From Nitrosopumilus cobalaminigenes (GTDB lineage: Archaea; Thermoproteota; Nitrososphaeria; Nitrososphaerales; Nitrosopumilaceae): a stretch of DNA of 32,000 bases. Where the stretch lies: contig NZ_CP026993.1 in the NCBI RefSeq assembly GCF_013407145.1, positions 858,590-890,589 on the forward strand, given 5' to 3'. Below are positions 4,294 through 32,000 of the stretch, piece by piece. Position 1 is the first letter of the stretch. Every line of letters starts with the position of its first letter. A model generated the notes under the pieces. The model was given only the letters and a program-made list of their open reading frames with translations. It was not told the origin of the DNA and did not search any database. The position numbers and the translations under genes were made by a program.

Positions 4294-5766
4294 TTATTTC
4301 TTATTGACAGTCTTTTTATTTGTTGATTTTTTAATAGGTTTTTTTGAAGATATTTTTTTAGTAATGGATTTTAGTTTTTTATCTTTTTCAGCAATCTTCT
4401 TTTTTAATTTCTGCTGTTTTTCTTTTAATTTTTGATTTTTATTTTTTATTTGAATTTCAATTTTCTCACGTTGTTTTTTTAACAAATCATATGTTTTTTC
4501 TTCTTTTTTGAGTTGTTTAGTTAACTCTGTTTGAGATTTCAATTTTGCTTTTTCCTCAACAGTCTTTTTGGTAATTAATTCTTTTTCAGCTGCAATTGTA
4601 TTGATTAATTTCAATCTATCTTCTTTTGCTTTTATCAAATCTTTTTCTTGTGATTTTATCAATTTTTTGAGTTTTTCAGATTCTGCAAATTTTGCTTTTT
4701 CTTCATTTACTTGGGAAACAATATCATCAAAATCCTGCTTTGTTTTTTCTAATTCCTTCTGCTTAGACGCAATTTCATGAGCAATCTGTGCCTGTTCTAC
4801 CAACCTAGATTTTTGCTCAGAGGCCATTTTTGCCAATAAATCTTGCTCACGAGCAACCTGTTTTTCAATTTTTTCTTGTTCTAATTGAGCTTGAACAAGT
4901 TGTCTTTTTTGTGAGAGTAAATCTTTTGAAATTTTTGCTTTTTCAGCAACAATTTTTTTAATTATAGATGTTCTTTCTTTTTTTACTTTGTCAAGTTCTT
5001 CTTTTTGGATTATAATTTCATTTGAAAGTTTTGTTTGAGTTTCAATTTTAATTCGTTCTTCTTTAATTTGGGATTCAAGTAAAGATTTTTGTTGAGTGAT
5101 TTTTTGTTCGTTTTCTTTTCTATGAGAAATTAATTGAGACAAGTTAGAACGTTGTAGATTAATTTCTTGATTAATTTTTTCTTGAGTTTTAATTTTCTTT
5201 TCTTCTTCAGATATATTTTTAGTGATTTTTTCTAATTCTTCAGGTTTATCTTCAGGAGACCAACCTTTTGGCATACTTCCTTTAACTTTAAGAGATGTTT
5301 TGATTTCTTCAATAATTTGTGTAGGTTTTGGAGGAATTATTTCGGGTTTAGGTTTAGGTGATTCTGTTTTAAGTGTAGTTTTTGGAAGAGTGATTTTTAG
5401 AGTGTCTGTAATTTCAATTGAATTTAGTTTTGATTCCAAATAAACAGAATCTGAATGATATAATGGCTTATTATTTTGAATTGTATCATAGATGTATTGT
5501 AATCTGCCAGGATCACCATTGCCACTGTCAATTAATTCTTTAATTTTTGGTAAAAGTTCATTTTCTTCTATAGGTTCATCTTTTACAGAAAAGGAAGAAT
5601 TTAATTTAGTTTCAAGATAAACTTTGTCAGAGTGATATAATGGCTTATTATTTTTTAAGAATTCTAAAATGTGATATAATCGTCCCGCATCACCATTGCC
5701 ACTGTCAATTAGTGCATCAACTTGTTCAATAGTTTGAGATAATGAGAGATGTTGTAATTGAGTCAC
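4294..5766 (-). CDS. K/E/Q-rich long coiled-coil protein with two N-terminal GDxGRL modules
   Basis: 490-aa ORF. A duplicated ~40-aa N-terminal module (LIDSGNGD[AP]GRL...NNKPLYHSD.VYLE.KLNS) is followed by ~350 aa of heptad-like charged sequence and a lysine-rich tail. Confidence 0.7.
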   Translation of the reverse strand: MTQLQHLSLSQTIEQVDALIDSGNGDAGRLYHILEFLKNNKPLYHSDKVYLETKLNSSFSVKDEPIEENELLPKIKELIDSGNGDPGRLQYIYDTIQNNKPLYHSDSVYLESKLNSIEITDTLKITLPKTTLKTESPKPKPEIIPPKPTQIIEEIKTSLKVKGSMPKGWSPEDKPEELEKITKNISEEEKKIKTQEKINQEINLQRSNLSQLISHRKENEQKITQQKSLLESQIKEERIKIETQTKLSNEIIIQKEELDKVKKERTSIIKKIVAEKAKISKDLLSQKRQLVQAQLEQEKIEKQVAREQDLLAKMASEQKSRLVEQAQIAHEIASKQKELEKTKQDFDDIVSQVNEEKAKFAESEKLKKLIKSQEKDLIKAKEDRLKLINTIAAEKELITKKTVEEKAKLKSQTELTKQLKKEEKTYDLLKKQREKIEIQIKNKNQKLKEKQQKLKKKIAEKDKKLKSITKKISSKKPIKKSTNKKTVNKK

Positions 5767-15490: not shown

Positions 15491-15715
15491 ATGAATTTTA
15501 TTACAAAAAAAGTCCTAGAAATGCAATACAAGAAACTAGATGATTCTAAAAAGAGATTAAATCAACATTTAGAGAAAAGGGAATCTCTAGTTAATTCTGA
15601 TTCTAAAAAAGAACTTGAAAAAATTGAAAAATATATTGAAATTTGGAAAAAGAATATTAAAAAAATAGAAAAAGAGATTAAGAAAATAGAAGACAAGGAA
15701 TTAAATTCTGAATAA
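15491..15715 (+). CDS. hypothetical K/E-rich coiled-coil protein (74 aa)
   Basis: ORF only. Confidence 0.4.
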   Translation: MNFITKKVLEMQYKKLDDSKKRLNQHLEKRESLVNSDSKKELEKIEKYIEIWKKNIKKIEKEIKKIEDKELNSE

Positions 15716-15747
15716 TTGGATTTTGAGGCTTGTTGTTGAATGAAATT

Positions 15748-15972
15748 CTAACATTTATCATCACAACCAAAATCCTTTGTTTGGTTTGCCAGCATTAATT
15801 GTCCTAGTTCTAAATCAGTAAATCCTGCTTTTTTCTTTGCGCAATCAAGACAGTATCTTTCCTCAGGGGCTACAGGGTTTTCAATAAAATTCTCCTCACC
15901 CAACACACATACGTTACAATCTATGCCTGAGCAAGTAAATTGATCTAAATGATTCTCACAATTACAAGTCAT
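15748..15972 (-). CDS. small Cys-rich protein (74 aa, 11 Cys), probable metal-binding
   Basis: CNC...C..IDC..C ... CLDC ... GCDDKC. It would be the gene immediately downstream of aEF-2 if the 14-kb insertion were removed. Confidence 0.55.
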   Translation of the reverse strand: MTCNCENHLDQFTCSGIDCNVCVLGEENFIENPVAPEERYCLDCAKKKAGFTDLELGQLMLANQTKDFGCDDKC

Positions 15973-16004
15973 TCATTGATTAGTTTTATTCCGAGGAATA
16001 TAGT

Positions 16005-16022
16005 TTATTCTTTATCGATAAA
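16005..16022. repeat. left copy of the target-site duplication (TTATTCTTTATCGATAAA)
   Basis: Identical to 30001..30018, and 19 bp long if 16004/30000 are included. The reverse complement reads F-I-D-K-E-stop, which is the aEF-2 C-terminus. Confidence 0.9.
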
Positions 16023-16060
16023 AATAGAATGCCCCCCGTTTAGGCGCTAAAACAGACAGG
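16022..16060 (+). repeat. outer left terminal inverted repeat (L1)
   Basis: AAATAGAATGCCCCCCGTTTAGGCGCTAAAACAGACAGG compared with the reverse complement of 29962..30000, AAATAGAATGCCCCCCTTTTACGCCTAATTTTAGACGGT. The first 16 nt are identical and roughly 70% match thereafter. Confidence 0.85.
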
Positions 16061-16111
16061 TAATTAGAAATCCATTTCTAACTTTAAATCATCTGAAAAT
16101 GAAAATATCTT

Positions 16112-16336
16112 ATGAAAACTTGGAAGGCATTAGTGATTTCTTCAAGTGTAATTATTGTTGCGAGTTTATTATTTTTTTATATGGTAAATTTATTGATGTT
16201 TTCTGAATCCTTTTCAGAACCAGGTAGTAGAGACAGAGATAAAATTCTCATTGGCGCGATTGGATGTCTTTTTTTTATTTTTATTGGAGTTGTTTCTCTT
16301 TTGTCTACTTTTAGATTCAGGAAATTTTCTTCATAA
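16112..16336 (+). CDS. small two-TM membrane protein (74 aa)
   Basis: The only ORF between the two left-end TIR copies. It has two hydrophobic helices. Confidence 0.45.
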   Translation: MKTWKALVISSSVIIVASLLFFYMVNLLMFSESFSEPGSRDRDKILIGAIGCLFFIFIGVVSLLSTFRFRKFSS

Positions 16337-16347
16337 GGTTCATCTTG

Positions 16348-16399
16348 AAATAGAATGCCTCCTTTCTAGGCAGGATTTTAGACGGTACTAGATGATTTT
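16348..16399 (+). repeat. second, internal left-end TIR copy (L2)
   Basis: AAATAGAATGCCTCCTTTCTAGGCAGGATTTTAGACGGTAC--TAGATGATTTT aligns over ~54 nt with the reverse complement of the right end, including the blocks ATTTTAGACGGTAC and TAGATGATTTT that L1 lacks. Confidence 0.8.
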
Positions 16400-16608
16400 C
16401 ATTTTTGGAACATTTAGGATCTTGTTATATTATTGAAGGTTCAATATACCCCATGGAAAAAAATTCAGAAGAATTTGAATCCTATGAAGAATATGATTGG
16501 ACTTCGCAAGAAGACCACGATTAATTCATAGGATGACAGATTTCTGTTTTTATTTCGCATGACATTCTGGGGCTATGGGTTTGGTATCCCTAGCCTTTTT
16601 TCATTTTC

Positions 16609-16647
16609 AAAAAGAATATTTCCACTATGCTTAAGTTCACACAAAAT
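16609..16647 (+). promoter_or_regulatory. shared promoter/leader box, copy 1 (core ATGCTTAAGTTCACACAAAAT)
   Basis: The 21-nt core at 16627..16647 is identical to 17866..17886, and the flanking AAAAAGA is also shared. The core ends 11 nt before the predicted start codon in both copies. Confidence 0.6.
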
Positions 16648-16658
16648 CCAGATAATTA

Positions 16659-17015
16659 TTGGGTTTTAAGAAAAGACGAAACAATCGTCATAACAACTAC
16701 AATAGAAAAAAAGGAGGAGCACGTCCAAAGTTAGCAGTTATTGGTGCTATCTCTTTAGTAATTGGAATTTTACTAATCCACTATGTCGGAGTGCCAGAGT
16801 TGCGTGCAGATAGAATGTCCGATAACCCTGCATTGATTGCAGGTTTTGTAGGCGTTGTGGGAGGAGTTTTGATGTTATTGCTTAGTTTGAGTAAAAGAAA
16901 TCAAGTTCGAGTGGGAAACGTAATAGATTCTGCAAGAGAGGCATTTAGAGATGATTGTATGTGTTGTAAATGCCAGAATTGTGACAGAAATCACAATCAC
17001 TGGACACATGATTAA
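16659..17015 (+). CDS. membrane protein with basic N-terminus, two TM helices and a Cys/His-rich C-terminus (118 aa)
   Basis: The TTG start aligns exactly with the ATG of 17898 relative to the shared promoter box. The C-terminus is CMCCKCQNCDRNHNHWTHD. Confidence 0.5.
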   Translation: MGFKKRRNNRHNNYNRKKGGARPKLAVIGAISLVIGILLIHYVGVPELRADRMSDNPALIAGFVGVVGGVLMLLLSLSKRNQVRVGNVIDSAREAFRDDCMCCKCQNCDRNHNHWTHD

Positions 17016-17033
17016 TTCATTTCAAATTAGATT

Positions 17034-17789
17034 TTAGGATTCACAACCGATTCCATCATTGTCCCTATCAAATCCATGAGGGTCACTTCCAATTACTCGG
17101 AAATTAGAATATCCAATATCCCCACAGTTTAGGTCTGGAGGATATGGTGGGATGCAGACATCAGGATATGATGGGTCACATTTTGGTGCATCATCAGTTG
17201 GTGGATTATAGTTTGATTCTTTTATTGTATAACACAACCCATCAGACCAGAGATACGGATAGTCGTTGTGACAACCATTTGATAGATATTCAGGCGAATT
17301 GTAACAGAATCCATTAGACCAATAGTATGGCTTGTTTACAGGACAATCAGGTTCTACCGTACTATGGCAGTAACCATCAGACCAGAGATACGGATTATTT
17401 TTGTGACATCCATTTTCTAAATAATCAGAGTACGAATCAGATGAACTAGTTCCTAAAAGATCATCTAGTAAATCATTTAGTTTTGCATTTTCTGTTTTTA
17501 GATTTTTATTTTCAGATTCTAAATCTAAAATCCTAGTTTCTAGGTTGTTTACCTTTTTTTGTAAAATAGAATTATCCTGATTTGGCATGTCAACTTTTAT
17601 GATATTTTGCTCAATTAGAAATGAGATAGATTCTCCAAAATCACTATCAGAAATATTCCCTTTTACCCAATAATCAGCCACTCCTTTAACCCATGCAGGA
17701 ATCTCTGATTGAGATTGTGCAGAAATTGAGGTAATTGAAATGCTAGAAATTACAATGCCAAGTATTGCAAATAATAGTAATTTTCTCAC
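17034..17789 (-). CDS. secreted protein with coiled-coil, three Cys-bracketed PY-WS-G repeats and a C-terminal Excalibur-like Ca-binding motif
   Basis: Signal peptide MRKLLLFAILGIVISSISITSISAQS. Three repeats follow: NGCHKNNPYLWSDGYCH, CPVNKPYYWSNGFCY and NGCHNDYPYLWSDGLCY. The C-terminal DRDNDGIGCE matches the Excalibur DxDxDGxxCE signature. Confidence 0.7.
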   Translation of the reverse strand: MRKLLLFAILGIVISSISITSISAQSQSEIPAWVKGVADYWVKGNISDSDFGESISFLIEQNIIKVDMPNQDNSILQKKVNNLETRILDLESENKNLKTENAKLNDLLDDLLGTSSSDSYSDYLENGCHKNNPYLWSDGYCHSTVEPDCPVNKPYYWSNGFCYNSPEYLSNGCHNDYPYLWSDGLCYTIKESNYNPPTDDAPKCDPSYPDVCIPPYPPDLNCGDIGYSNFRVIGSDPHGFDRDNDGIGCES

Positions 17790-17850
17790 AAATTATTCAA
17801 GACATACTGTAAATTAAGAATTTAAGAGAAAATCAGTTTTGGTTCTATGA

Positions 17851-17886
17851 AAAAAGAGTTCCAATATGCTTAAGTTCACACAAAAT
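17851..17886 (+). promoter_or_regulatory. shared promoter/leader box, copy 2
   Basis: See 16609..16647. The identical 21-nt core lies at 17866..17886, and the ATG at 17898 begins 11 nt after it. Confidence 0.6.
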
Positions 17887-17897
17887 TTATCAAAATT

Positions 17898-18116
17898 ATG
17901 ACATTTTGTTCTTATTGCGGTCATGAATTAGAAGCATACTCTAACTATTGCTCAGAATGCGGAAAACAAGATAAATCAAAAAAGGAAATTCTCCATGATT
18001 TCAATATAGGACAACAATCAGTTGAAAAAATGTTTGAGAAAGGAAATCGTTGTGAAAAATGCAGACATTTGATAACTGGAAAATTTTGCAAGAATTGTGG
18101 TTGTAAAAATAGTTAG
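17898..18116 (+). CDS. double zinc-ribbon protein (72 aa)
   Basis: CSYCGHEL...YCSECG and CEKCRHLI...FCKNCGC, giving two CxxC-Nn-CxxC ribbons. Confidence 0.55.
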   Translation: MTFCSYCGHELEAYSNYCSECGKQDKSKKEILHDFNIGQQSVEKMFEKGNRCEKCRHLITGKFCKNCGCKNS

Positions 18117-18232
18117 AATAATCTGCAATTACTATATGATTACTTTTGATCATACTCCGATAGAATACGATAATATCCCGAGTTAATGCGATTATACTCC
18201 GATATGACACAATTATGGTAATAATCGTGAGA

Positions 18233-18350
18233 GGCTCAGCTTTTGCTCGGGCACGATGGTTTTGCGATTATGGGTGGCTCAGCTTTTACTCAGGCACGAT
18301 GGTTTTGCGATTATGGGTGGCTCAGCTTTTACTCAGGCACGATTATATGG
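18233..18350. repeat. 43-bp tandem repeat, 2.6-2.7 copies, intergenic
   Basis: The unit GGCTCAGCTTTTACTCAGGCACGATGGTTTTGCGATTATGGGT occurs at 18233, 18276 and 18319 (partial). Copy 1 differs from copy 2 at 2 positions. The array lies between convergent genes. Confidence 0.9.
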
Positions 18351-18361
18351 AAAACAGGGCT

Positions 18362-18646
18362 CTATTGGAATTCTTTTTTCAACTCATCGTATTCTGCTTT
18401 TGTAATCTCGCCTTTTGCCAATCTAGTTTTTAGAATATTCAATGAATTGTTGTTTTGATCATTTTTGATTTTATCAGGATTCTCTTCAGTTACAGGGGGA
18501 TTGGATTGTAAATCAGACATGTCTTCTTGAAATGTGTTTTTTGATTTTCTGCTTGCTACAATTGCGATAACTACAATTATTGGAATTACAAATAAAATCA
18601 AAACTAGCAATTCAGTAGTGCCAATCATATTGACATATTGCATCAT
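18362..18646 (-). CDS. single-TM protein with C-terminal SHOCT domain (94 aa)
   Basis: N-terminal TM LLVLILFVIPIIVVIAIVA. The C-terminal LNILKTRLAKGEITKAEYDELKKEF fits the SHOCT consensus. Confidence 0.65.
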   Translation of the reverse strand: MMQYVNMIGTTELLVLILFVIPIIVVIAIVASRKSKNTFQEDMSDLQSNPPVTEENPDKIKNDQNNNSLNILKTRLAKGEITKAEYDELKKEFQ

Positions 18647-19275
18647 TTCTCAAATTCCCCCTTTAACTCATCATACTCTGACTTTGTAATCTCACCTTTT
18701 GCTAGTCTACTTTTTAGAATTCCTAAATTACTTAGATCATCATCTTTAGGATTGACATATGCTTTAGCAGATTGTGATTGTTTTGGTCTGGAATGATATG
18801 CTTTTCTTTTTTCGCAAGTCGTATGATGATTATGCAGTTCTTTACCGTTTTCTGCTAAATAATTACAGTATACACATCGCTCATAATCACTACGTCCTTT
18901 GAAGTAATCTACTACATGTGGTCTCCACATGTAAAATAGAACTATTACATCTATCACGATATATCCAATTGCAAATACATTTCCTCCAAATAGTGTCATT
19001 AGTTGAATTATCAAATTAACTATTGCAAGAATGATTACAATTACTCTACCACCACTTCTTCCGCTGAACAATGCACCAGCAATTGTAAACTCGATTAATG
19101 CTGCAATAACTATTGCAGATGCAATCCAACCTGCAAATTGACCAATTCCACCAAGAAATGAATTACCCATCATACTATTTGCAATATATCCAACCCCAAT
19201 TGCCAGAGCAAACAAGGTCAGCCCTTCAAGAATATACCAAACTCCTAGAAATGAAACGCCTAGAGGTCTACCCAT
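18643..19275 (-). CDS. multi-TM protein with Cys/His cluster and C-terminal SHOCT domain (210 aa)
   Basis: Four or so TM helices, then CVYCNYL...HNHHTTC, then the C-terminal LGILKSRLAKGEITKSEYDELKGEF. There is a 4-nt overlap with the downstream SHOCT gene. Confidence 0.7.
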   Translation of the reverse strand: MGRPLGVSFLGVWYILEGLTLFALAIGVGYIANSMMGNSFLGGIGQFAGWIASAIVIAALIEFTIAGALFSGRSGGRVIVIILAIVNLIIQLMTLFGGNVFAIGYIVIDVIVLFYMWRPHVVDYFKGRSDYERCVYCNYLAENGKELHNHHTTCEKRKAYHSRPKQSQSAKAYVNPKDDDLSNLGILKSRLAKGEITKSEYDELKGEFEK

Positions 19276-19458
19276 TAGATATCCCTCTTTTGAGAAATCA
19301 TAGAGTTTACACTAGAAATCTGAAACTCTGTCAAGTGAAGAAAATATGAATTTCTCAACATAGGGTTTGCCAAAAAATTGCATATAAACAATATTGTAGT
19401 TTAAGATGTTACAATTACGTTTACGAGTATTCATGCGTCAAACCCTGAATAAATCGAT

Positions 19459-19490
19459 GGCTCAGATTTTACTCAGGCACGATTGTATCA
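19459..19490. repeat. isolated distal copy of the first ~32 nt of the 43-bp repeat family
   Basis: GGCTCAGATTTTACTCAGGCACGATTGTAT compared with GGCTCAGCTTTTACTCAGGCACGATTATAT at 18319. Both are in the same orientation, on the far side of the two SHOCT genes. Confidence 0.8.
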
Positions 19491-19554
19491 AAAAGAGTAG
19501 AATTTGAGGGTGTTTTGTAGAAGAGTTTAGAAATCACTTTACAAATCATAAGTT

Positions 19555-20850
19555 ATGAATGTCCAAGACAAAAGAAAGAATGGGATAAACAACGATACAA
19601 TAATTTCTGAATTAGAAAAAATTCCCACTATCAATCAATATGAAGATGTTCTCATTCGATTAGCAGTTGACAAATTAACTGATTCTAATAATCTCTATTT
19701 TGCAAGGATTGATTATCTCTGTAAAGGAGATCCTTTACCTGAAGAATTTACAAAAAACTATGATGATATAATCATTACACAGTTAATCAAAAAACGTGGC
19801 GAGTTTATAGAATTTTTATCAAACTTACTGAAAAACGGTTCATCAAAAATTAATGAGATTACTGTCAGTGCATCAATGAAACAAAACTGGGATTTTGTAT
19901 CTAGACCAAGTAATTCATCTCACGGTTATGTAAAAAGTGATTTTCCTCATTTAGGTGCAGAAACTCAATTAGAATATGATCGAAATAGAGATCCTTATGC
20001 CCTAGTTTCGGGGAAAAACCTCCCTCCATTTCCAAATACATCTAGGGCAATAATTGATTTGTTTGATTTGCATCATGGAGGAAGAGAAGGAGGATGGTTA
20101 AATGAAAATAAATTGATTATAGATGTACCTGATTATCGGGTAGGAATAAAGAAACTTAGAATTGGAAAAAATAAAATTTCAGTAGAAATTAATTCAAAAT
20201 TATTAGATGAATCAAAATTAGTCTGTCAGTTTTACACAGAAAAGAAACAAGAGGTTTCATCACGCATACAAAATGGAATTTCTGAAATGTCTTGTGAGGA
20301 TATCCCTAAAGAAATTCTTGCAGTGATAAAAGAAAAGGAAACTGATGAGGTTCTAGATTTTTTTGATTACACTGTAAGTTGGGCAATGTCTGAAGAAGCA
20401 GTAGAAAAAGAGGTTCCTGAAGATGTGATTCGAGGCTGGATTAATGGGGGAGAAAATGAAACAGTGGAATTCAAGGAAGTGCTCAAACATGCAGATGATG
20501 TCATGAAGTCAGTAGTTGCTTTTGCCAATACAGAGGGGGGCGTAATTCTTGTTGGAGTATCTGATGATTGTTCTATACTGGGATATGATGTTCCAGTAGA
20601 AGATGTAAAAAATAGATTTGGCAGAATGGTTGCAGACAAATGTGATCCTCCCATAGAATTTGAAATAGAAGAAGCCGATTTGAATCCACGAATAATTGTG
20701 ATAAAAATTCCTAAAGGAAAAAGCAAGATCTATTCAGTAACTAATGGTGCAATCTATGTTAGAAGACATAGTTCGGATAGATTCATCAAAACTACTGAGT
20801 TGATGGAAGTTTTTGGAGATAAGTCTCGAAATGATAATAATTCTGTTTAA
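19555..20850 (+). CDS. protein with C-terminal AlbA_2 (Schlafen/divergent-AAA-type) putative DNA-binding domain (431 aa)
   Basis: GENETVEFKEVLKHADDVMKSVVAFANTEGGVILVGVSDD is the characteristic E.E.K....AFAN..GG.+..GV.D signature. The N-terminal ~290 aa are unassigned. Confidence 0.7.
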   Translation: MNVQDKRKNGINNDTIISELEKIPTINQYEDVLIRLAVDKLTDSNNLYFARIDYLCKGDPLPEEFTKNYDDIIITQLIKKRGEFIEFLSNLLKNGSSKINEITVSASMKQNWDFVSRPSNSSHGYVKSDFPHLGAETQLEYDRNRDPYALVSGKNLPPFPNTSRAIIDLFDLHHGGREGGWLNENKLIIDVPDYRVGIKKLRIGKNKISVEINSKLLDESKLVCQFYTEKKQEVSSRIQNGISEMSCEDIPKEILAVIKEKETDEVLDFFDYTVSWAMSEEAVEKEVPEDVIRGWINGGENETVEFKEVLKHADDVMKSVVAFANTEGGVILVGVSDDCSILGYDVPVEDVKNRFGRMVADKCDPPIEFEIEEADLNPRIIVIKIPKGKSKIYSVTNGAIYVRRHSSDRFIKTTELMEVFGDKSRNDNNSV

Positions 20851-20871
20851 GTAAACTATTTCAAAATTAAG

Positions 20872-21948
20872 TCAAGGTTGAATTTGTTCAAATAATTCCG
20901 GATAAAGTGTAATAATTATCGAAGCAATTTGTGGGAGAGATACAGATACTGAAATAATTATTCCGATAAGAGGACTCCACTCTATGACTTTATCTTTGAA
21001 AGAGATTCCAGTTAGAACATCATCTTTAGAATCATTTGTAGGGTATTTCTTTTTTAATATTTGAATTAATTCTACATTATTTAGATCAAATGAATCATAA
21101 ATTTCTTGTATATTGTCATTCATTGAACCATTCGAATTTGAAATTATTTGTGAAACAACCTCATCAGTCTTTTGAATTTGTAATTTCATGACCCTGCGCA
21201 AATATTTGTTGTAAGAATTAATCCCGAAATACAAATAATTAATTTTCTCAAATTCGTTTTCCAAATGTAAGCTTAATTCTAAACTCGATTTTGCCAGATA
21301 GTACCTATAATCAGTGTAAATCAACAGCATTAAAAATTTCCAAATTGCAGATAATGAAATAATTGCAGATGCTAATGTAATAACAAGGAAAATTGTTCGT
21401 AAATATAACGAATCATTTTCAGATAGTTGTACATCATAAGAACCCAACACCAAGGCCATCATTGCAAATATTATCATTATTGGAATGGATGCCATCAAAA
21501 CTTTACTTACCCATCTAAATTCAACTACAGTTTTCATGGTGCCATTTACATCAAAGAATACTCTTGCCGATATTGTCGTAGGGGAAAGGAAATATCGTAT
21601 TGGAGCTAAAGTAAAAATAATAGGATAAAAAATTACTCCCAAAAATGCAAAAACAACATATTCGTTATAAAATATTGAAGGCGCGTAAACAATCAGGGCA
21701 AATAAGAATGCAAATGCACTGACAGCTACAGATGGAATGGATATCAAATAGCGAGCAGGTCGTTCAAGGGCATCCTTTTTAATTTCATTATGAGGGGTTT
21801 TATCCTCATAAACTAATTTTAGAATCCATTTGATGTTTAATGTATTGTATATTTCTCGATTTATTTTTACAGGAAGTTTTTGTACATATGAAGGAATTTG
21901 TTTAATTTTTGAACCTAAGTTTAATTCCACAATTTTACATAAACTCAT
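20872..21948 (-). CDS. multi-TM membrane protein with cytoplasmic C-terminal region (358 aa), function unknown
   Basis: At least 6 hydrophobic helices in the central part. It lies immediately downstream of polB on the same strand, with an 11-nt gap. Confidence 0.65.
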   Translation of the reverse strand: MSLCKIVELNLGSKIKQIPSYVQKLPVKINREIYNTLNIKWILKLVYEDKTPHNEIKKDALERPARYLISIPSVAVSAFAFLFALIVYAPSIFYNEYVVFAFLGVIFYPIIFTLAPIRYFLSPTTISARVFFDVNGTMKTVVEFRWVSKVLMASIPIMIIFAMMALVLGSYDVQLSENDSLYLRTIFLVITLASAIISLSAIWKFLMLLIYTDYRYYLAKSSLELSLHLENEFEKINYLYFGINSYNKYLRRVMKLQIQKTDEVVSQIISNSNGSMNDNIQEIYDSFDLNNVELIQILKKKYPTNDSKDDVLTGISFKDKVIEWSPLIGIIISVSVSLPQIASIIITLYPELFEQIQP

Positions 21949-21959
21949 ACTTTAATATA

Positions 21960-23741
21960 TTAGATCGTAATTTTTTGTATATAATTTAATGAAATAGACA
22001 TTGAATCATTACATTCCTTTTGATCAATTGATTCAATTGTACCCAACCACAATCTTTTCCTATCCGCATTAAGATTAACTTCTCTAGTTATTGGTGCAAT
22101 CTTTCCAATGTCTTGTATCCTATCTGATAGTATGCTTGAACGTAATCTAGAATTTCTCAACACATTAAATTTGTAAAATAATTTCCCGTCTTTTTCAAAT
22201 GTATCCAAGTGTTCAATTTCCTTAGACCCTAATCGTCCCAAACCACGTTGTTTCCAAATCCCGTTAAATCGATAGAATCCATTTTGTAAATAGAAGGTAT
22301 CTTGACTCTCACCATCATATGAGAAATCGCCTAATCGTTTAGAATCTAAATTCAGTTTCTTGGTAGTACAGATTGAATCAGTCGCAAAGGCCACAATGTC
22401 TCCCTCAAGCCTGTTTCTAGTCACAAATTCGTACAATTTGGCACGAGTATACCCTGTGATGAATGCAAACATTACAGGATTAAACAAATTCCCCATTACA
22501 CCATTGATCTTTTGGCCAGTCTTCCCATAAATTGAATTTAAGATAATTTTGATTGGTTGCTCTAATGGATTATTTTCTTTCTTTAGTTTCTGTCTTTTTT
22601 GATACAAAGATTGAATGAATTTTCTGTATGGATAAATATCAGATGTACTGATAAATTGATAACCTTCAAGAATCCTGTAAAGATTTTTTTTGCAGGCTTG
22701 GAGTTCTGATAACGTACAATACGTTACAAATTTCCCTGAAGGGTACAATATGACATTATTTGTTTTAAATGGGAATGGTGCCACTATACTATCATCTGGA
22801 ATATCACATAATACTTTGAAGAATCCCAACTTTGTATCTGCGTGTATTGATTTTCTTTTAATCCATTTACCTTTAGATAAATCTGGAAAGTGGGCAATGG
22901 CATCAGGGTATGCAGAGTTGATATCATAAAGATAGGCCTTGCCAATGTATCCTCGCTTGATTAATTCAATTCGTCCTCCAAAATATGACTTGAATGCTAA
23001 CTCTTGAATTGGATAAGGAGTATCAACGAATCTAGGTAGATTGATCCCATTGTTGATCAGAACTTTTTCTGCCAAATATCCTGCACTGGTCCATTTGGCA
23101 GGATAAAATGAAAATGCATTGCTAAATAGTGTAATCCATTTTTCAGATAATTCTTTTGTAAATTTACAATCTTGTATACAATAGTTTCTAATTTTTTTCT
23201 TGTTGTGATTGTAAAATCGTAATGTAAATTCTTTACGCTTTTCTTTCATAGAGAGATATTCTGAAGATAATTCTCCAATGTTTTTCTGATATGCATTACT
23301 TAGAGAACCTCCAAAGAATTGCATTATATCAAAAAACAATACTGAATGATGACCTTTCTTGATTCGAAGAGATTTGCCAGGAAAATATTCTAGATGGTAA
23401 TCCCCCCACCAGAAATCTAATTTTCCAGTGAAGCGATATCGATACAGTTCTGAGCCTAGCAGTTTGAGGATAACTTCGGCATCATAGGATAGATTATAGA
23501 AAAAGTTCCATGAACCGTGATATTTTTTACAAAATAGCCATTTTATCACGGATTCAGGTGTGATTTTGTCTAAATATCGCCCATCAGAGTCCGCAATTAG
23601 AAAGATATCTCCTTTGTAGGTCTCAGTGTCTAAGGCATGAATTTGTCGTAATTTAGAATGTGCAGAGTTGCGATTTTGAGGCCTTTTGGTGTAGACCTTG
23701 GATAAATCCCGGCACTCTGTTACGGGGAAGGATTCTGCCAT
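21960..23741 (-). CDS. polB: family B DNA polymerase, protein-primed type (pPolB)
   Basis: ExoI is ALDTETY (D38/E40), ExoII is YNLSYD (D87) and ExoIII is YCIQD (Y187/D191). YFGG lies at residues 253-256. Motif A is LYDINSAYP (D273), motif B is KIILNSIYGKTG (K398) and motif C is VAFATDSI (D455). At 593 aa it is similar in size to phage phi29 pol. Confidence 0.9.
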   Translation of the reverse strand: MAESFPVTECRDLSKVYTKRPQNRNSAHSKLRQIHALDTETYKGDIFLIADSDGRYLDKITPESVIKWLFCKKYHGSWNFFYNLSYDAEVILKLLGSELYRYRFTGKLDFWWGDYHLEYFPGKSLRIKKGHHSVLFFDIMQFFGGSLSNAYQKNIGELSSEYLSMKEKRKEFTLRFYNHNKKKIRNYCIQDCKFTKELSEKWITLFSNAFSFYPAKWTSAGYLAEKVLINNGINLPRFVDTPYPIQELAFKSYFGGRIELIKRGYIGKAYLYDINSAYPDAIAHFPDLSKGKWIKRKSIHADTKLGFFKVLCDIPDDSIVAPFPFKTNNVILYPSGKFVTYCTLSELQACKKNLYRILEGYQFISTSDIYPYRKFIQSLYQKRQKLKKENNPLEQPIKIILNSIYGKTGQKINGVMGNLFNPVMFAFITGYTRAKLYEFVTRNRLEGDIVAFATDSICTTKKLNLDSKRLGDFSYDGESQDTFYLQNGFYRFNGIWKQRGLGRLGSKEIEHLDTFEKDGKLFYKFNVLRNSRLRSSILSDRIQDIGKIAPITREVNLNADRKRLWLGTIESIDQKECNDSMSISLNYIQKITI

Positions 23742-27017: not shown

Positions 27018-27809
27018 ATGTGGTTTGATAATCCTTTGTTACCGCCTTTACTAGTTCTTGTTGCTATTGGTATTGCTGTTGGATATATGATAGGATTTGT
27101 TGATAATGATGTAGATTCTGCAAGTGAATTGGGGATTTATCTTGCTGCAATTTCAATTGGATTGACAGGAGCAGTTTTCATATTGCAAAGTAAAACTAGC
27201 CATGAAGTTAAAGATATTGTTAAGAAAATGGATGATGAAAAAAAGGATAGAAAAGAATATGTCCTCAGAGGATTGGTAAACGCGTTTAGAGAAACACGTT
27301 ATAATCTGCAATTGATGCGTTCAGAATTACTGACATTGGCACGATCCAATGGAGTAAATGGAAATAAGCAAACAATAGAAAACAATTGGAAAATTATTAA
27401 CAATTCAGGAGTTGACAGAATTCAATTTTTAATAACATTGTCTCATGATGTTATTTCAACCTCTAAATTAGATCAAATTGAAACTGTCAAAAATATTATG
27501 AAATCCGAATATGATTCAGATTATAACACCATGAGTACTATAGTATCGTTCTTGTTAACTCAATCAGATTATGTATTTAGAGATGATCTTAAAGAATTAC
27601 GACTTAAAATGGCAAAAGAAGAAATTTCAAAATTAGTATCAGAATTAAAAAGTGGGGCGGATGAAAATTCATTAAGTTTTCAGAGAAATAAAAGGCGGTG
27701 GGAATCCTATCTATATTTACCAACAGATGATGAAATCAAAAATGAGTGTGAATCTAAACTTGAAGCAACTTCTTCTGAAGACAGCACTCTGCCAGATTTT
27801 GAACCATGA
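27018..27809 (+). CDS. two-TM N-terminal anchor plus helical cytoplasmic domain protein (263 aa)
   Basis: TM helices LLPPLLVLVAIGIAVGYMIGF and LGIYLAAISIGLTGAVFIL. The 3' end overlaps the 3' end of cas1 by 56 nt (convergent). Confidence 0.6.
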   Translation: MWFDNPLLPPLLVLVAIGIAVGYMIGFVDNDVDSASELGIYLAAISIGLTGAVFILQSKTSHEVKDIVKKMDDEKKDRKEYVLRGLVNAFRETRYNLQLMRSELLTLARSNGVNGNKQTIENNWKIINNSGVDRIQFLITLSHDVISTSKLDQIETVKNIMKSEYDSDYNTMSTIVSFLLTQSDYVFRDDLKELRLKMAKEEISKLVSELKSGADENSLSFQRNKRRWESYLYLPTDDEIKNECESKLEATSSEDSTLPDFEP

Positions 27810-28770
27810 CCTTAGCAACAGTAATCTCTTGAACTGATTTCAGACCTGATTTTGTCTTCTTTCCGTGCCTAAAATCATACTTTCTTTCCTGTGAAAATTG
27901 CCTTTCTAATAATTCTAAAAACCTTCTAATCAAATCGTATTCAATTACTACAGTTCCATCTTTGGTGTAACTATACTCTTTGAGTTTGATTCTATTTCTC
28001 TTCTCTTTGTTATTTGCAATTTTATACACAGAATAGTCCACTAACCATCTGAATGGCTCAATCAAATCATAAACTAGGGGTTGAAATCCTGTGTGAGTTT
28101 TATGCATAAATCCAAAGTAAGGATCAAGACCAATTCCACAGACAAATTTTGATATCTCACCTGCCAAAACAGAATACCCATAATTCAGTAAAGCATTGAT
28201 GATGTCAGTTGCATCATTTTTGGCAATTCTGATAGAGGATTGATTCCTTGAATGAAATCCATATTTTTCCGGGATGAATTTGGCATATTCTCTAAAGTAG
28301 ATTATGGCGGCAGATGATTCTCTATCAGGTAATGAAGTAATGCCACTACCAATTAGTTTGAGCAGTTTTAGTTGAGATTCTTTTTTGGCCGAGATGATTT
28401 GTTTTCTCAGATATCCACATTTTGACTCGTTTCGAAACGTATCATATTGTGCTATTCGGTATTTTGTTCCAGTTAGAGAATCCATCATGCCATTACAGAA
28501 AGTGACGGGTTTTCCGTGATTATCAAGTAAAATGACATTTCGGTTATTTTGAGAAAGTAGCGATAATGCCTCAGTGGAGACGTAGCCCTTTCCTGAAATA
28601 ACAATTTTCTCATATGGCATGTTTTTGACAAACCATTCCTCAATTTCAGGCTCAGAAAATGGGTCGTGATTTGATTTTAGGATAATTTTAGAATTTTTAA
28701 CAGAAATAGAATGACCATAGCCTTTGAGGAATTTTATGTTATAGTGGTTTTTTTGACCTTTAAGAGTCAA
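27754..28770 (-). CDS. cas1: Cas1 family integrase (casposase), solo
   Basis: ESSAAIIYF (E151), the signature INALLNYGYSVLAGEI....GLDPYFGFMHKT (H223) and PLVYDLIEPFR (D235/E238), and an N-terminal beta-rich domain. 338 aa. There is no cas2 or CRISPR in the window. Confidence 0.9.
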   Translation of the reverse strand: MTLKGQKNHYNIKFLKGYGHSISVKNSKIILKSNHDPFSEPEIEEWFVKNMPYEKIVISGKGYVSTEALSLLSQNNRNVILLDNHGKPVTFCNGMMDSLTGTKYRIAQYDTFRNESKCGYLRKQIISAKKESQLKLLKLIGSGITSLPDRESSAAIIYFREYAKFIPEKYGFHSRNQSSIRIAKNDATDIINALLNYGYSVLAGEISKFVCGIGLDPYFGFMHKTHTGFQPLVYDLIEPFRWLVDYSVYKIANNKEKRNRIKLKEYSYTKDGTVVIEYDLIRRFLELLERQFSQERKYDFRHGKKTKSGLKSVQEITVAKVMVQNLAECCLQKKLLQV

Positions 28771-29665
28771 ATTCTTTAATTTGATATTCTACATCTTCAA
28801 ACGGATTTTCTAATTGATTAAGCTGATTGTAAATCAGAGTAATTGCAATGTTCAAACAATTCCAAGCATTCTCTTGAGTCACTTCTCTTTTTTTCCTATG
28901 AACAATATCATTTCTTAATTTTCTTAATTTTGTAAAGCATTCATATCCTTTTGAATCAAGTTTCTCAGAAAACGTAAAGGCCTCAATATAATGACTAGTG
29001 CTCCAAGAATGATGATTTTTTAATGCTTGTCTTTCCTCCTTTGTTCTCTTCAAATCTTTGACAAATTTTTCCCAAACTCTTTCTATAACACTTTCAATAA
29101 CAATCCAGGAATTAAGAAAAGATATGCTAAACAATTCATCTTGATACATTCCACCAGATTCACCAATTATCAACAAATCATTTTTGAAACTATCATTGTC
29201 AAGGAAACGAGCTGATTGATCAATTAACATTTCCATAAGATGTTTTTGAATTGGTTGTCTTTCAATTGTTGACCAATATTCATAGTCTACATCATCTTCA
29301 CGTTTACTTTCTTGAATTACCCGTAAAGATTTACTCAAACTACCTGCAGCTACAACATAATCCCAATCTTCTTTCCAAGTAAATCCACAGATATCATTTT
29401 TTGTAATAAATCTGGCCCGATGAAATTTTGTGATAAATACTGCAAAAAGTACATTGAGAAATTCAAATGCTTCATCTTCGTTTTTCCCAATAGGACAAAC
29501 AAAACAATCATCAGTTACTAGAACTCGCAATCCTTCGGATGTAGTAGTGTCGATAACAATGGGTCTTTTAATCGTCGATATTCGTGGTAGTTTCTCAGGA
29601 TTTGCTTCATAAAGTTGAGATGGTGGATAAAAAAATGTGCCAAAACCAATCGTTCTTCCAGTCAT
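28760..29665 (-). CDS. protein with C-terminal HEPN-like domain (R-x4-H), 301 aa
   Basis: KLRKLRNDIVHRK (R251-N-D-I-V-H256, nt 28898..28915) sits in a helical C-terminal half. The stop overlaps the cas1 start by 11 nt, and the start overlaps the upstream ORF stop by 4 nt. Confidence 0.6.
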   Translation of the reverse strand: MTGRTIGFGTFFYPPSQLYEANPEKLPRISTIKRPIVIDTTTSEGLRVLVTDDCFVCPIGKNEDEAFEFLNVLFAVFITKFHRARFITKNDICGFTWKEDWDYVVAAGSLSKSLRVIQESKREDDVDYEYWSTIERQPIQKHLMEMLIDQSARFLDNDSFKNDLLIIGESGGMYQDELFSISFLNSWIVIESVIERVWEKFVKDLKRTKEERQALKNHHSWSTSHYIEAFTFSEKLDSKGYECFTKLRKLRNDIVHRKKREVTQENAWNCLNIAITLIYNQLNQLENPFEDVEYQIKEFDS

Positions 29666-29946: not shown

Positions 29947-30000
29947 AAAATCATCTAGTGTACCGTCTAAAATTAGGCGTAAAAGGGGGGCATTCTATTT
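29947..30000 (-). repeat. right terminal inverted repeat (R)
   Basis: The reverse complement is AAATAGAATGCCCCCCTTTTACGCCTAATTTTAGACGGTACACTAGATGATTTT. It pairs with L1 (16022) and, over a longer span, with L2 (16348). Confidence 0.85.
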
Positions 30001-30018
30001 TTATTCTTTATCGATAAA
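30001..30018. repeat. right copy of the target-site duplication; also the last 5 codons plus stop of aEF-2
   Basis: TTATTCTTTATCGATAAA is identical to 16005..16022. Confidence 0.9.
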
Positions 30019-32000
30019 TTCTGAAACACCTGGTGGTTCTGGTGCCAATCCTTTTCTCTTTCTAATATCAGCTACTGCTGGTCCTAACATTGATTTTGGA
30101 ACTTCAGTCCATTCTTTGAAAGAAGTATTCCAAGTTGCACGACCGGCAGTCTGTCCTCTCATAGCTTCTGATAGTGTAAAAGTTTCTGATGCAGGAATCT
30201 CTCCAACGACAATACTTGTTGCACCTTTTTGTGACATATCAAGTACTTTACCTCGTTTACCTGAAAGTATAGTTGCAACATTTCCAACCAAATCAGTTGG
30301 TACACGAACTTCAATTGCCAAAGTTGGCTCCAACACTGCAGTACCTGCTGTTAGCAAAGCACCCATACATGCACGTCTTGATGCAGGTCCTAATTGTGAC
30401 AAACCTCTGTGTGCTGTATCCTCGTGAGGAACAAAGTGAGTAAAGATGAATTTACAATCCCTCATCTGTTCTTTACAGAGAGGACCTTCTTTCATTACTT
30501 CTTCAAATCCTGAATTAATAGAATCAGTGGACTCTTGTACAAATTGAACACCTTTTGTTCCATTAATCAAAACATTACCACGTGAATCAAATTTCATAAT
30601 TCTCTTGATTGTGTCAGTATCCCATCCTGCACCTTTGAGTAAATCAGATACCACCTTCTTATCTTTGATGTCAGATATTTCACCAGTTCTTAGCATATGT
30701 GCAATTTCAGGTTCTAGTGGTTCTACTTTCATGAAAATTTTATTGTGACGGTTTGGTGATTTTGCCATGATTGGCTCACATGGACCTTTTACAGTTTCTC
30801 TGTAGTTAATCAAAGGCTCTGATGTTACAATCTCAACTTTTGCATCTTGGATTCTGTGTGTTGCAACATCCAAGTGTAGCACACCCATTCCTGCAACAAT
30901 TGTCTCACCTGATTCCTCATCAATTTTTACAACAAGGTTAGGATCCTCAATGGTTAATTGTCTTAAAACTTCGACTAGTTTAGGTAAATCTTTAGGATGT
31001 TTTGGCTCGATGGCAATTTGAACAACTGGTTCTGACACATACTTTACACCTTCAAACATTGGAATGTCTTTAATTGATGATAGAGTGTTTCCTGCTCTAC
31101 ACTCAGTTAATCCTAATAATGCTGGAATATTTCCTGCTCCTAGTTCACCAACTTGTTCTCTTTGGTTACCCATAAAGAAATTGACGGATTGAACTCTGCC
31201 TTCTCTTTTCTCATCTATAATGTTCAAAGTTTGACCATCTTTGATAGTACCAGAAAATAATCTTCCAATTGCAACAGGACCTGCTGCAGGATCTAACACC
31301 ATGTTTACAACCATCATAATTGTTGGACCATCATCATCTCCTGCAAGCAATGCTTTACCTACATCAGATTCTAAATCGCCTTTCCAAATTTGTGGGATTC
31401 TGTACTTGATTGCATCGTGTGGTGCTGGATGATGTTTTACAACCATTCCAAGAACAGCATCAGCTAGTGGTGCTTTCTCAATAAGGTCTGGAAGTTTTTC
31501 ATCAGTGTATGCATCAATTACATCTTTGAATGTGATTCCTCTTTCTTTCATTAAATCAGTGTTAATTGCCCATCTGTCTTTTGCTGAACCAAATGTCACA
31601 CTTGCATCTTGAATAGATACTTTCCATTTCTCTTTGTATTCAGGTTCTGCATAAGTGTCAACTAGAGTATTGAAATTTGAAACAACTTCAGCTAATTGTG
31701 CTTGCATTTTTTCTGGAGTTAATCTTAGTTCTTTGATTAATCTGTCTACTTTGTTGATAAACAAAACGGGTTTTACTCTCTCCTCTAGTGCCATTCTAGT
31801 TACTGTTTCTGTTTGAGTCATGATACCTTCTACTGCATCACAGACAACTACAGCACCATCAATTGCTCTTAGTGAACGAATTACCCTTCCACTGAAATCT
31901 ACGTGGCCTGGAGTATCAATCATGTTAATTACGTATTCTTGGTCTTTTTGTGCAAAGAGCAAAGTAACGTTTGCTTGGTAAATTGTAATTCCTCTTTCCT
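30001..32000 (-). CDS. fusA: translation elongation factor aEF-2 (5'-partial; N-terminus lies beyond the window)
   Basis: The reading frame stays open to the window edge (..RGITIYQANVTLLFAQKD..). The G-domain motif is DTPGHVDF. The diphthamide-site region is HEDTAHRG. 653+ aa of clear EF-2/EF-G family sequence, ending ..SEFIDKE. Confidence 0.95.
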   Translation of the reverse strand, partial: ERGITIYQANVTLLFAQKDQEYVINMIDTPGHVDFSGRVIRSLRAIDGAVVVCDAVEGIMTQTETVTRMALEERVKPVLFINKVDRLIKELRLTPEKMQAQLAEVVSNFNTLVDTYAEPEYKEKWKVSIQDASVTFGSAKDRWAINTDLMKERGITFKDVIDAYTDEKLPDLIEKAPLADAVLGMVVKHHPAPHDAIKYRIPQIWKGDLESDVGKALLAGDDDGPTIMMVVNMVLDPAAGPVAIGRLFSGTIKDGQTLNIIDEKREGRVQSVNFFMGNQREQVGELGAGNIPALLGLTECRAGNTLSSIKDIPMFEGVKYVSEPVVQIAIEPKHPKDLPKLVEVLRQLTIEDPNLVVKIDEESGETIVAGMGVLHLDVATHRIQDAKVEIVTSEPLINYRETVKGPCEPIMAKSPNRHNKIFMKVEPLEPEIAHMLRTGEISDIKDKKVVSDLLKGAGWDTDTIKRIMKFDSRGNVLINGTKGVQFVQESTDSINSGFEEVMKEGPLCKEQMRDCKFIFTHFVPHEDTAHRGLSQLGPASRRACMGALLTAGTAVLEPTLAIEVRVPTDLVGNVATILSGKRGKVLDMSQKGATSIVVGEIPASETFTLSEAMRGQTAGRATWNTSFKEWTEVPKSMLGPAVADIRKRKGLAPEPPGVSEFIDKE

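Follow-up and report, generated by a model that had tools for sequence, protein, structure and literature searches.

What history would leave a transposable element with two left ends? In a 32,000-nucleotide stretch of Nitrosopumilus cobalaminigenes DNA (hereafter the window), two left TIRs in the same orientation, an outer one (L1) and an inner one (L2), lie 326 bp apart on one side of a casposon that has a single right TIR (R). The original prediction offered two histories for this arrangement: successive integrations into the same aEF-2 site followed by deletion or recombination that left a solo end, or an original L2..R element that received L1 from a second element. To choose among these and other readings, we asked where the element ends, which left end belongs with R, how related casposons are built and what lies between the two left ends.

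A family 1 casposon at the 3′ end of aEF-2

Family 1 casposons usually, though not always, insert at the 3′ end of aEF-2. In the window, this gene (30001–31962, minus strand; Pfam EF-G/EF-2 domains) has its 3′ end occupied by a casposon of approximately 14 kb that encodes Cas1 and a protein-primed PolB, which is a family 1 casposon in its usual target. R forms a TIR pair with both L1 and L2, and the two copies of the target site duplication (TSD) are identical. The casposase is a Cas1 homologue of 338 amino acids (27754–28770, minus strand; PF01867, E = 4e-41), compared with 347 amino acids in N. koreensis; Cas1 is the sole Pfam domain found in it, and it is 84% identical to the casposase of L080, one of the related loci that we collected. 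The polymerase, a family B DNA polymerase of the protein-primed type (21960–23741, minus strand; PF03175, E = 4e-26), is 62–87% identical to the PolBs of N. koreensis AR1, N. sediminis AR2, N. adriaticus and Nitrosotalea genomes, which host published family 1 casposons; the identity is 87% to L080 and 64% to N. koreensis AR1.

The left arm (16401–21959) carries a mosaic cargo, as judged by Pfam: ORF118 (16659–17015), an Excalibur-domain protein (17034–17789), a SHOCT protein (18643–19275), a Schlafen/AlbA_2 protein (19555–20850) and a 358-amino-acid protein without assigned function (20872–21948). Homologues of ORF118 and of the Excalibur-domain protein are cargo in other casposon loci, and ORF118 homologues are also found in loci without a casposon-end match (L095–L098; the N. 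zosterae chromosome and an IS-rich contig). In one related locus, L094, the homologues stand in another order (Excalibur, YbjQ, ORF116), which indicates that the left arm of the window casposon has been rearranged. A 50-nucleotide direct repeat (80%; 16598–16647 and 17837–17886) brackets ORF118 and the Excalibur-domain gene. Between cargo genes there are also four 43-nucleotide repeats, three in tandem (18228–18356) and the fourth 1.1 kb off (19454–19496). A HEPN-like protein is encoded beside Cas1 (28760–29665), its top match, RiboL-PSP-HEPN, falling under the Pfam cut-off; together with the Schlafen/AlbA_2 protein it could be defence-type cargo.

Boundaries of the element

The terminus motif AAATAGAATGCC is exact at 16022 (plus strand) in L1 and at 16348 (plus strand) in L2, as originally reported, and also at 30000–29989 (minus strand) in R; the other sequences quoted in the original prediction likewise agree with the sequence that we read. 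The position of the true termini depends on the TSD. For NitAR1-C1, the casposon of Ca. Nitrosopumilus koreensis AR1, the report on the element and its casposase (Wang et al. 2021, PMC8464041) describes a TSD mapped experimentally at 13 bp, with a TTT leader before it, ATAA at positions 5–8, A11 and T13, and gives TTT as the minimal leader for the casposase. The window has the same target: ATCGATAAAGAAT in the sense of aEF-2 (ATTCTTTATCGAT on the plus strand) is present at 30015–30003, inside the 3′ end of the gene, and at 16019–16007, and TTT precedes both copies. By analogy with PMC8464041 and with the 13-nucleotide spacing of tips in our relatives, the TSD of the window would be 13 bp long, with a distal copy at 16007–16019 and a proximal copy at 30003–30015. 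That spacing is constant in relatives with two neighbouring elements and so lends independent support to the length. With the TSD placed there, the termini are AAAAATAGAATGCC..., L1 starts at 16020 and R ends at 30002. The true tips thus read AAAAATAGAA and lie 2 nucleotides farther out than the coordinates first given for the L1 and R tips, although the motif positions themselves stand. The stop codon of aEF-2 consists of the last T of the proximal TSD and the first AA of the casposon.

The tips of the casposon mimic the flanking TTT and AAA, and this produces an apparent direct repeat of 19 bp (16004–16022); the corresponding repeat in NitAR1-C1, which also has flank-mimicking ends, measures 22 bp (PMC8464041). 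Casposon ends close with ...TTCTATTTTT, so that TTT also precedes the distal TSD (16004–16022 and 30000–30018). Having the TTT leader before each, both TSD copies look like valid targets, and this may account for the high frequency of tandem arrays described below.

The original prediction had judged a second TSD before L2 to be at best degenerate. The match of TTCATCTTGAAA (16339–16350) to TTTATCGATAAA (16011–16022) at 8 of 12 positions is as reported, but over the full TSD length the likeness vanishes: depending on the register, 4 or 6 of 13 positions agree, values that are reached by 57% and 16% of window 13-mers, respectively, and are therefore at chance level.

The inner left end pairs with the right end

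To place the ends without reference to the window, we built an nhmmer profile from the ends of other casposons only, using 31 relatives' ends that align from the first base, and excluded the window's own ends. In the 32-kb window, this profile matched L1, L2 and R and nothing else. L1 (16020–16075, plus strand), which has the intact tip AAAAATAGAATGCCCCCC, scored 33 bits (E = 4e-8, 16020–16069); L2 (16346–16400, plus strand), with the tip TGAAATAGAATGCCTCCT, scored 28 bits (E = 1e-6, 16348–16392); and R (29948–30002, minus strand), which adjoins aEF-2, scored 41 bits (30002–29952). L2 is therefore far above chance, as it was found by a profile made without the window ends.

The alignment of L2 begins only at profile position 3. 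L1 and R have a 16-nucleotide tip, AAATAGAATGCCCCCC, in common, and L2 has two C-to-T changes there, both points as originally described; over the first 18 nucleotides, L1 equals R exactly and L2 differs from R at four. After unrelated sequence, L2 reads TGAAATAGAA, so that its two outermost bases and two Cs differ from R. All relatives' ends that we aligned or listed begin with AAAAATAGAA (type I) or AAAAAGG (type II) directly behind the 13-nucleotide TSD. Without these two invariant terminal bases and without a TSD, L2 is not an equivalent of L1, and the original suggestion of two alternative left substrates for the casposase is not supported in that form. The simplest reading is that the tip of L2 is damaged or decayed. 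L2 retains the conserved subterminal motif AGACGGTAC..TAGATGA and the TTCTA motif, an end motif that is present in NitAR1-C1 as well as in the window and that matters in vitro (PMC8464041).

Beyond the tip, the relationships are reversed. The motifs ATTTTAGACGGTAC and TAGATGATTTT are common to L2 and R and missing from L1, which confirms the similarity noted at the outset, and the subterminal sequence of L1 is of a subtype that differs from that of R and L2 (..TAGGCGCTAAAACAGACAGGTAATTAGAAA). Among the inverted repeats of the region, L2/R is the best (41 nucleotides, 83%), and L1/R extends over 28 nucleotides at 93%. We then compared the subterminal sequences with the family-wide tip left out and with 2,000 dinucleotide shuffles as control. 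L2 and R were identical at 34 of 39 positions (score 24), which none of the 2,000 shuffles reached, so that the worry that this likeness is no better than shuffled AT-rich sequence can be set aside. For L1 and R, the identity was 30/37 (score 10; reached by one shuffle of 2,000), and for L1 and L2 it was 25/39 (score 3; reached by 657 of 2,000). Ten cognate pairs in relatives scored 15–33. Because its score is inside this range, L2 and R form a cognate pair; L1–R lies below all cognate pairs, and L1–L2 is at chance level. L1, a complete end, represents another subtype; closest to it are ends of L080 and L014.

The tip signal is opposite to the subterminal one. The 18-mers of L1 and R are identical, as are those of the two ends in 13 of 18 complete relatives, and this 18-mer is also the commonest tip among metagenome ends. 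Which left end belongs to the core genes is likewise not clear-cut, as Cas1 and PolB are closest to those of L080, the owner of the end that is nearest to L1.

Relatives have two ends each and often stand in tandem

We gathered relatives by a PolB profile on genome contigs, by exact-protein look-ups and by searching metagenomes for the end pattern; a TIR pattern gave no match in viral contigs, and a strict 21-nucleotide subterminal pattern of L2/R gave none in metagenomes. Approximately 20 complete relatives have exactly two ends each, among them the closest ones, L080 (PolB 87% identical to that of the window), L081 and L082 (78%) and L110. L2 is thus not a conserved internal feature. A conserved subterminal repeat with a function, such as a binding site for the casposase or terminal protein or a repeat of a replication origin, would fit the retention of the subterminal motif by L2, but no internal end-like copy occurs in any of these complete relatives, and L2 is a whole end with a tip motif that goes beyond the subterminal box. 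The original prediction had named such an L2-like repeat in homologous elements as a finding that would speak against it; with the repeat absent from the relatives, we consider a functional role of this kind very improbable.

The relatives (both ends in L007, L009, L017 and L028; further examples at L002 5485, L004 4328, L082 14427 and L084 172) show two types of tip within family 1, AAAAATAGAAT[G/C]CCCC (type I) and AAAAAGG[G/C]AA[A/T][G/T]CCCCCC (type II). Each type occurs at both ends of complete elements, and mixed tandems across one 13-nucleotide TSD are common. The sequence AAAAAGGCAAAGCC, which stands beside several TSDs, is neither a host terminator hairpin nor a decayed tip, two ideas that we considered and rejected; it is the regular second tip type and occurs at both ends of complete casposons.

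An inverted neighbour end was found exactly 13 nucleotides away in at least nine genome loci and in five metagenome contigs (tip-to-tip distance of 14 in nine loci). Tandem insertion is therefore the rule rather than the exception in family 1 casposons. In the window, neither an inverted end nor a TSD precedes L2, and we filed the locus as a decayed array rather than an intact one. Decay by internal deletion is common among the relatives: many PolB fragments occur, as do two mini-casposons, one of 1.1 kb and one of 2.6 kb. The two mini-casposons (L047 9786–10916 and L037 9104–11751, respectively) retain two intact ends around no more than a PolB fragment; they were apparently derived by internal deletion and are presumably non-autonomous.

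The window is not alone in having co-oriented ends that lack an inverted partner, but such pairs are rare. In a Nitrososphaerales MAG (L043 4380–8100), a decayed array has three same-orientation ends with tips near 4478, 7040 and 8028, two near-identical ones being 984 bp apart; the PolB is fragmented, and an aEF-2-like leader/TSD fragment is present without an intact aEF-2 gene. In L086, two type II ends come after a decayed type I end, and all three point the same way. In L094 (3530–4130), a leucyl-tRNA synthetase gene is followed directly by approximately 25 nucleotides of an aEF-2 3′ end, a TSD and a full casposon end; behind this outer end come a gene for an AAA_33 kinase-like protein and then a second, co-oriented copy of the end that lacks the tip, after which there is cargo homologous to the left arm of the window casposon.

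The near-identical pairs in L043 and L094 (about 0.5 kb apart in the latter) give some plausibility to a local duplication of the element's own left end as the source of two same-orientation copies in the window. Against this, L1 and L2 are unrelated past the family-wide tip, where about a third of the shuffles (657 of 2,000) reach their score, and the nearest neighbours of L1 and of L2 are different elements, so that a duplication of this sort is highly improbable here.

The interval between the two left ends

Between L1 and L2 lies a single gene, ORF74 (16112–16336, plus strand), which encodes a predicted two-helix membrane protein of 74 amino acids and would be the only gene left of the outer element. 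A search of 5.8 billion proteins returned three clusters, of which two are homologous, and the dN/dS of 0.16–0.28 indicates that ORF74 is a real gene under purifying selection. Rfam gave no credible match over 15500–17000. L1 has the character of a solo TIR in that only ORF74 follows it and no partner of the L1 subtype is present in the window.

Homologues of ORF74 in three loci, L083, L084 and L085, lie approximately 100 nucleotides inside a casposon-type end, in the same orientation as in L1–ORF74 and without L2. In these loci, an overlapping 59-amino-acid ORF and further genes come after ORF74. None of them is present in the window, where a search with this ORF59 and the downstream ORFs of L084 found no other gene of the lost outer element. 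DNA homology of the window to the three loci is confined to 16104–16330; it fades within about ten bases of the ORF74 stop codon, just before L2, so that L1–ORF74 looks like the terminal module of another casposon, cut behind its first gene. The end beside ORF74 in the three loci has a type II tip, AAAAAGGCAAAAGCC..., and is of a different subtype from L1; the L1–ORF74 unit is therefore mosaic, and its parent was not recovered as a complete casposon.

The junction between the outer remnant and L2 (16337–16347), the putative deletion joint, holds no TSD copy, no inverted end and no third end-like match. Mini-casposons such as those of L047 and L037 raise the thought that the L1–L2 interval is itself a miniature non-autonomous casposon beside the full element, but this would require an inverted right end, for which nhmmer gave no match at E values up to 10 (16290–16347), and a TSD before L2, where matches are at chance level; we regard it as the least credible of the readings considered here.

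On the other side of L1, the flanks of L083–L085 show short similarities to the distal junction (GAATATAG and TTTATYGA), which can be read either way via an ATCGAT palindrome and so do not speak for or against orthology of these loci with that junction. Just left of the distal TSD, a gene for another 74-amino-acid protein (15491–15715) has a homologue in L084 (2246–2470), at 83% DNA identity, 1.8 kb from ORF74 and in the opposite relative orientation, and a weaker protein match (41%) in L041 (7503–7706), on the interior side of a casposon end. The apparent host flank left of the distal TSD may itself be older mobile-element debris.

A decayed tandem array as the favoured explanation

We think it probable, at roughly 0.65, that two family 1 casposons once stood in tandem at the 3′ end of aEF-2 in the window and that this array has decayed, most of the outer element having been lost by deletion. 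The complete element, with Cas1, the protein-primed PolB and cargo, would be bounded by L2 (16346–16400) and R (29948–30002), and the 326 bp outside L2, that is L1 and ORF74, would be a terminal fragment of a second, related casposon at the same target. Both histories in the original prediction agree with the data in this respect, and the solo-end reading gains support from the cognate relationship of L2 and R, the other subtype of L1, the homologues of L1–ORF74 that stand without L2 and the frequency of tandem arrays.

Each insertion would regenerate the target, TTT followed by the 13-bp ATCGATAAAGAAT, on both sides, with the casposon end closing in ...TTCTATTTTT, and the expected order of an intact array would be TSD-L1...R1-TSD-L2...R-TSD. 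The order that is present is TSD-L1-ORF74-L2...R-TSD. A single deletion could account for the difference, if it ran from just past the stop codon of ORF74 into the tip of L2 and so took out the rest of the outer element with R1 as its inner end, the TSD in the middle and the first two bases of L2; two ends in the same orientation would be left. The TIR-TSD-TIR joint of a tandem is a quasi-palindrome, and five such joints found in relatives fold as hairpins, with z-scores between −5.4 and −3.9. Breakage in the middle of the palindrome with imprecise joining would put one endpoint of the deletion at the tip of L2, and a casposase break at that tip would explain the endpoint equally well; unless one of these ideas holds, an endpoint no more than 2 nucleotides from the tip is a coincidence. 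Purifying selection could explain why the other endpoint spared ORF74. As a consequence, an intact tip and a TSD now come together at L1 alone among the left ends, not at L2; if the element is still mobile, it would have to travel as the L1..R composite and take ORF74 along. We infer the order of insertion, the deletion and its mechanism: a search for an intact tandem, an L2-only version or an empty site of this locus found none, so the deletion is reconstructed and not observed.

One signal runs counter to the deletion model. The first 18 nucleotides of R are those of L1, not of L2, which fits L1 and R as the pair that is currently maintained. It is conceivable that what integrated here was a composite mobile unit, L1..R, with ORF74 and a fossil L2 inside. 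The stranded outer end of a neighbour would have been recruited earlier as the left terminus, and ORF74 would have become cargo by end capture. This account and the decayed array agree on the ultimate origin; they differ in the place and time of the joint and in which end is functional now. In its favour, L1 and R share their tip as the two ends of most complete relatives do, L2 is off at four positions including both invariant outermost bases, and the TSD copies around L1..R are perfect; but the shared tip is the commonest among recovered ends, hence weak evidence, and TSD copies are perfect in all relatives, whatever the age of the insertion. In vitro, little end sequence suffices for the N. 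koreensis casposase (PMC8464041), which is also compatible with a composite unit. L094, with its homologous cargo, offers a parallel in its outer end and TSD, one-gene segment and tip-less inner end of the same orientation, and the 9-mer TCTTCATAA before that inner end equals the 3′ end of ORF74. This match has p of about 0.02 before correction for selection by eye, and the two ends of L094 are of a different subtype. No second copy of L1-ORF74-L2 turned up among the three clusters of the ORF74 protein search, nor through the strict L2/R pattern in metagenomes (0 matches). We consider the composite unit unlikely, if worth keeping in mind. The reading in which the stranded L1 now works as the left terminus and the casposon moves as L1..R, with ORF74 as newly captured cargo, strikes us as somewhat more doubtful again. 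If it were true, casposons could in general acquire genes and exchange ends through the decay of tandem arrays, and the double end of L094 would be a second product of the same process; the 9-mer in L094 leaves room for a composite left end inherited in the lineage.

Relation to known tandem casposons and solo ends

The decayed array has close published counterparts. Tandem family 1 casposons, NitNF5-C1 and NitNF5-C2, occupy ef-2 of Ca. Nitrosopumilus adriaticus NF5 (Krupovic et al. 2019, PMC6563490), and tandem family 2 casposons are known in Methanosarcina (PMC4779613). The former resemble the window in both target and element family, and all of these loci show repeated use of one target site. 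In the published tandems both elements are present with a shared TSD between them, whereas in the window approximately 326 bp of the outer element is left, the shared TSD and the inner end are gone and the left ends are co-oriented. Casposon-derived solo-TIRs in Methanosarcina mazei (Krupovic et al. 2016, PMC4779613; discussed in Hickman et al. 2020, PMC6977970) are, like L1, ends left without their element, and they have been explained by degradation of a full-length casposon. They measure 19 or 31 bp, derive from a different casposon family and occur in strains without a casposon at that site; unlike them, L1 is a full-length family 1 end of approximately 55 nucleotides that comes with a conserved gene and directly abuts a complete casposon. 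NitAR1-C1 uses the same target and is a different element, as the PolB identity of 64% indicates, and the passages of PMC8464041 consulted do not mention a double left end for it. A more distant parallel, drawn in PMC4046053 and PMC4779613, is that of Tn7-like islands, in which tandem, partly inactivated transposons stand at one attachment site. There too, a site-specific transposon piles up at one site and older copies decay, but the transposase and the end structure are unrelated to those of casposons.

Tandem casposons and solo ends have thus already been published, and the locus is one more case, from family 1 and at a stage in between. Its structure is explained by known processes and leaves the current understanding of casposons unchanged. 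What it adds is a record of the stage between a tandem array and a lone end in a thaumarchaeal family 1 casposon, which supports the published picture of casposons that accumulate at a single site and decay there. For annotation, the limits of the element and its cargo depend on which left end is chosen. Should the outer end still be usable, the locus would show a way in which a casposon can gain a neighbouring gene. It also supplies two natural left ends, L1 intact and L2 without the terminal AA, that could be compared in casposase assays.

The closest relative by PolB deserves a final remark. The contig of L080 (AJVJ01000035.1, 12,831 nucleotides) starts exactly at a casposon tip and stops inside the other end, so that the whole contig is one casposon; its limits could reflect an assembly break at repeats or a free linear form of the element.
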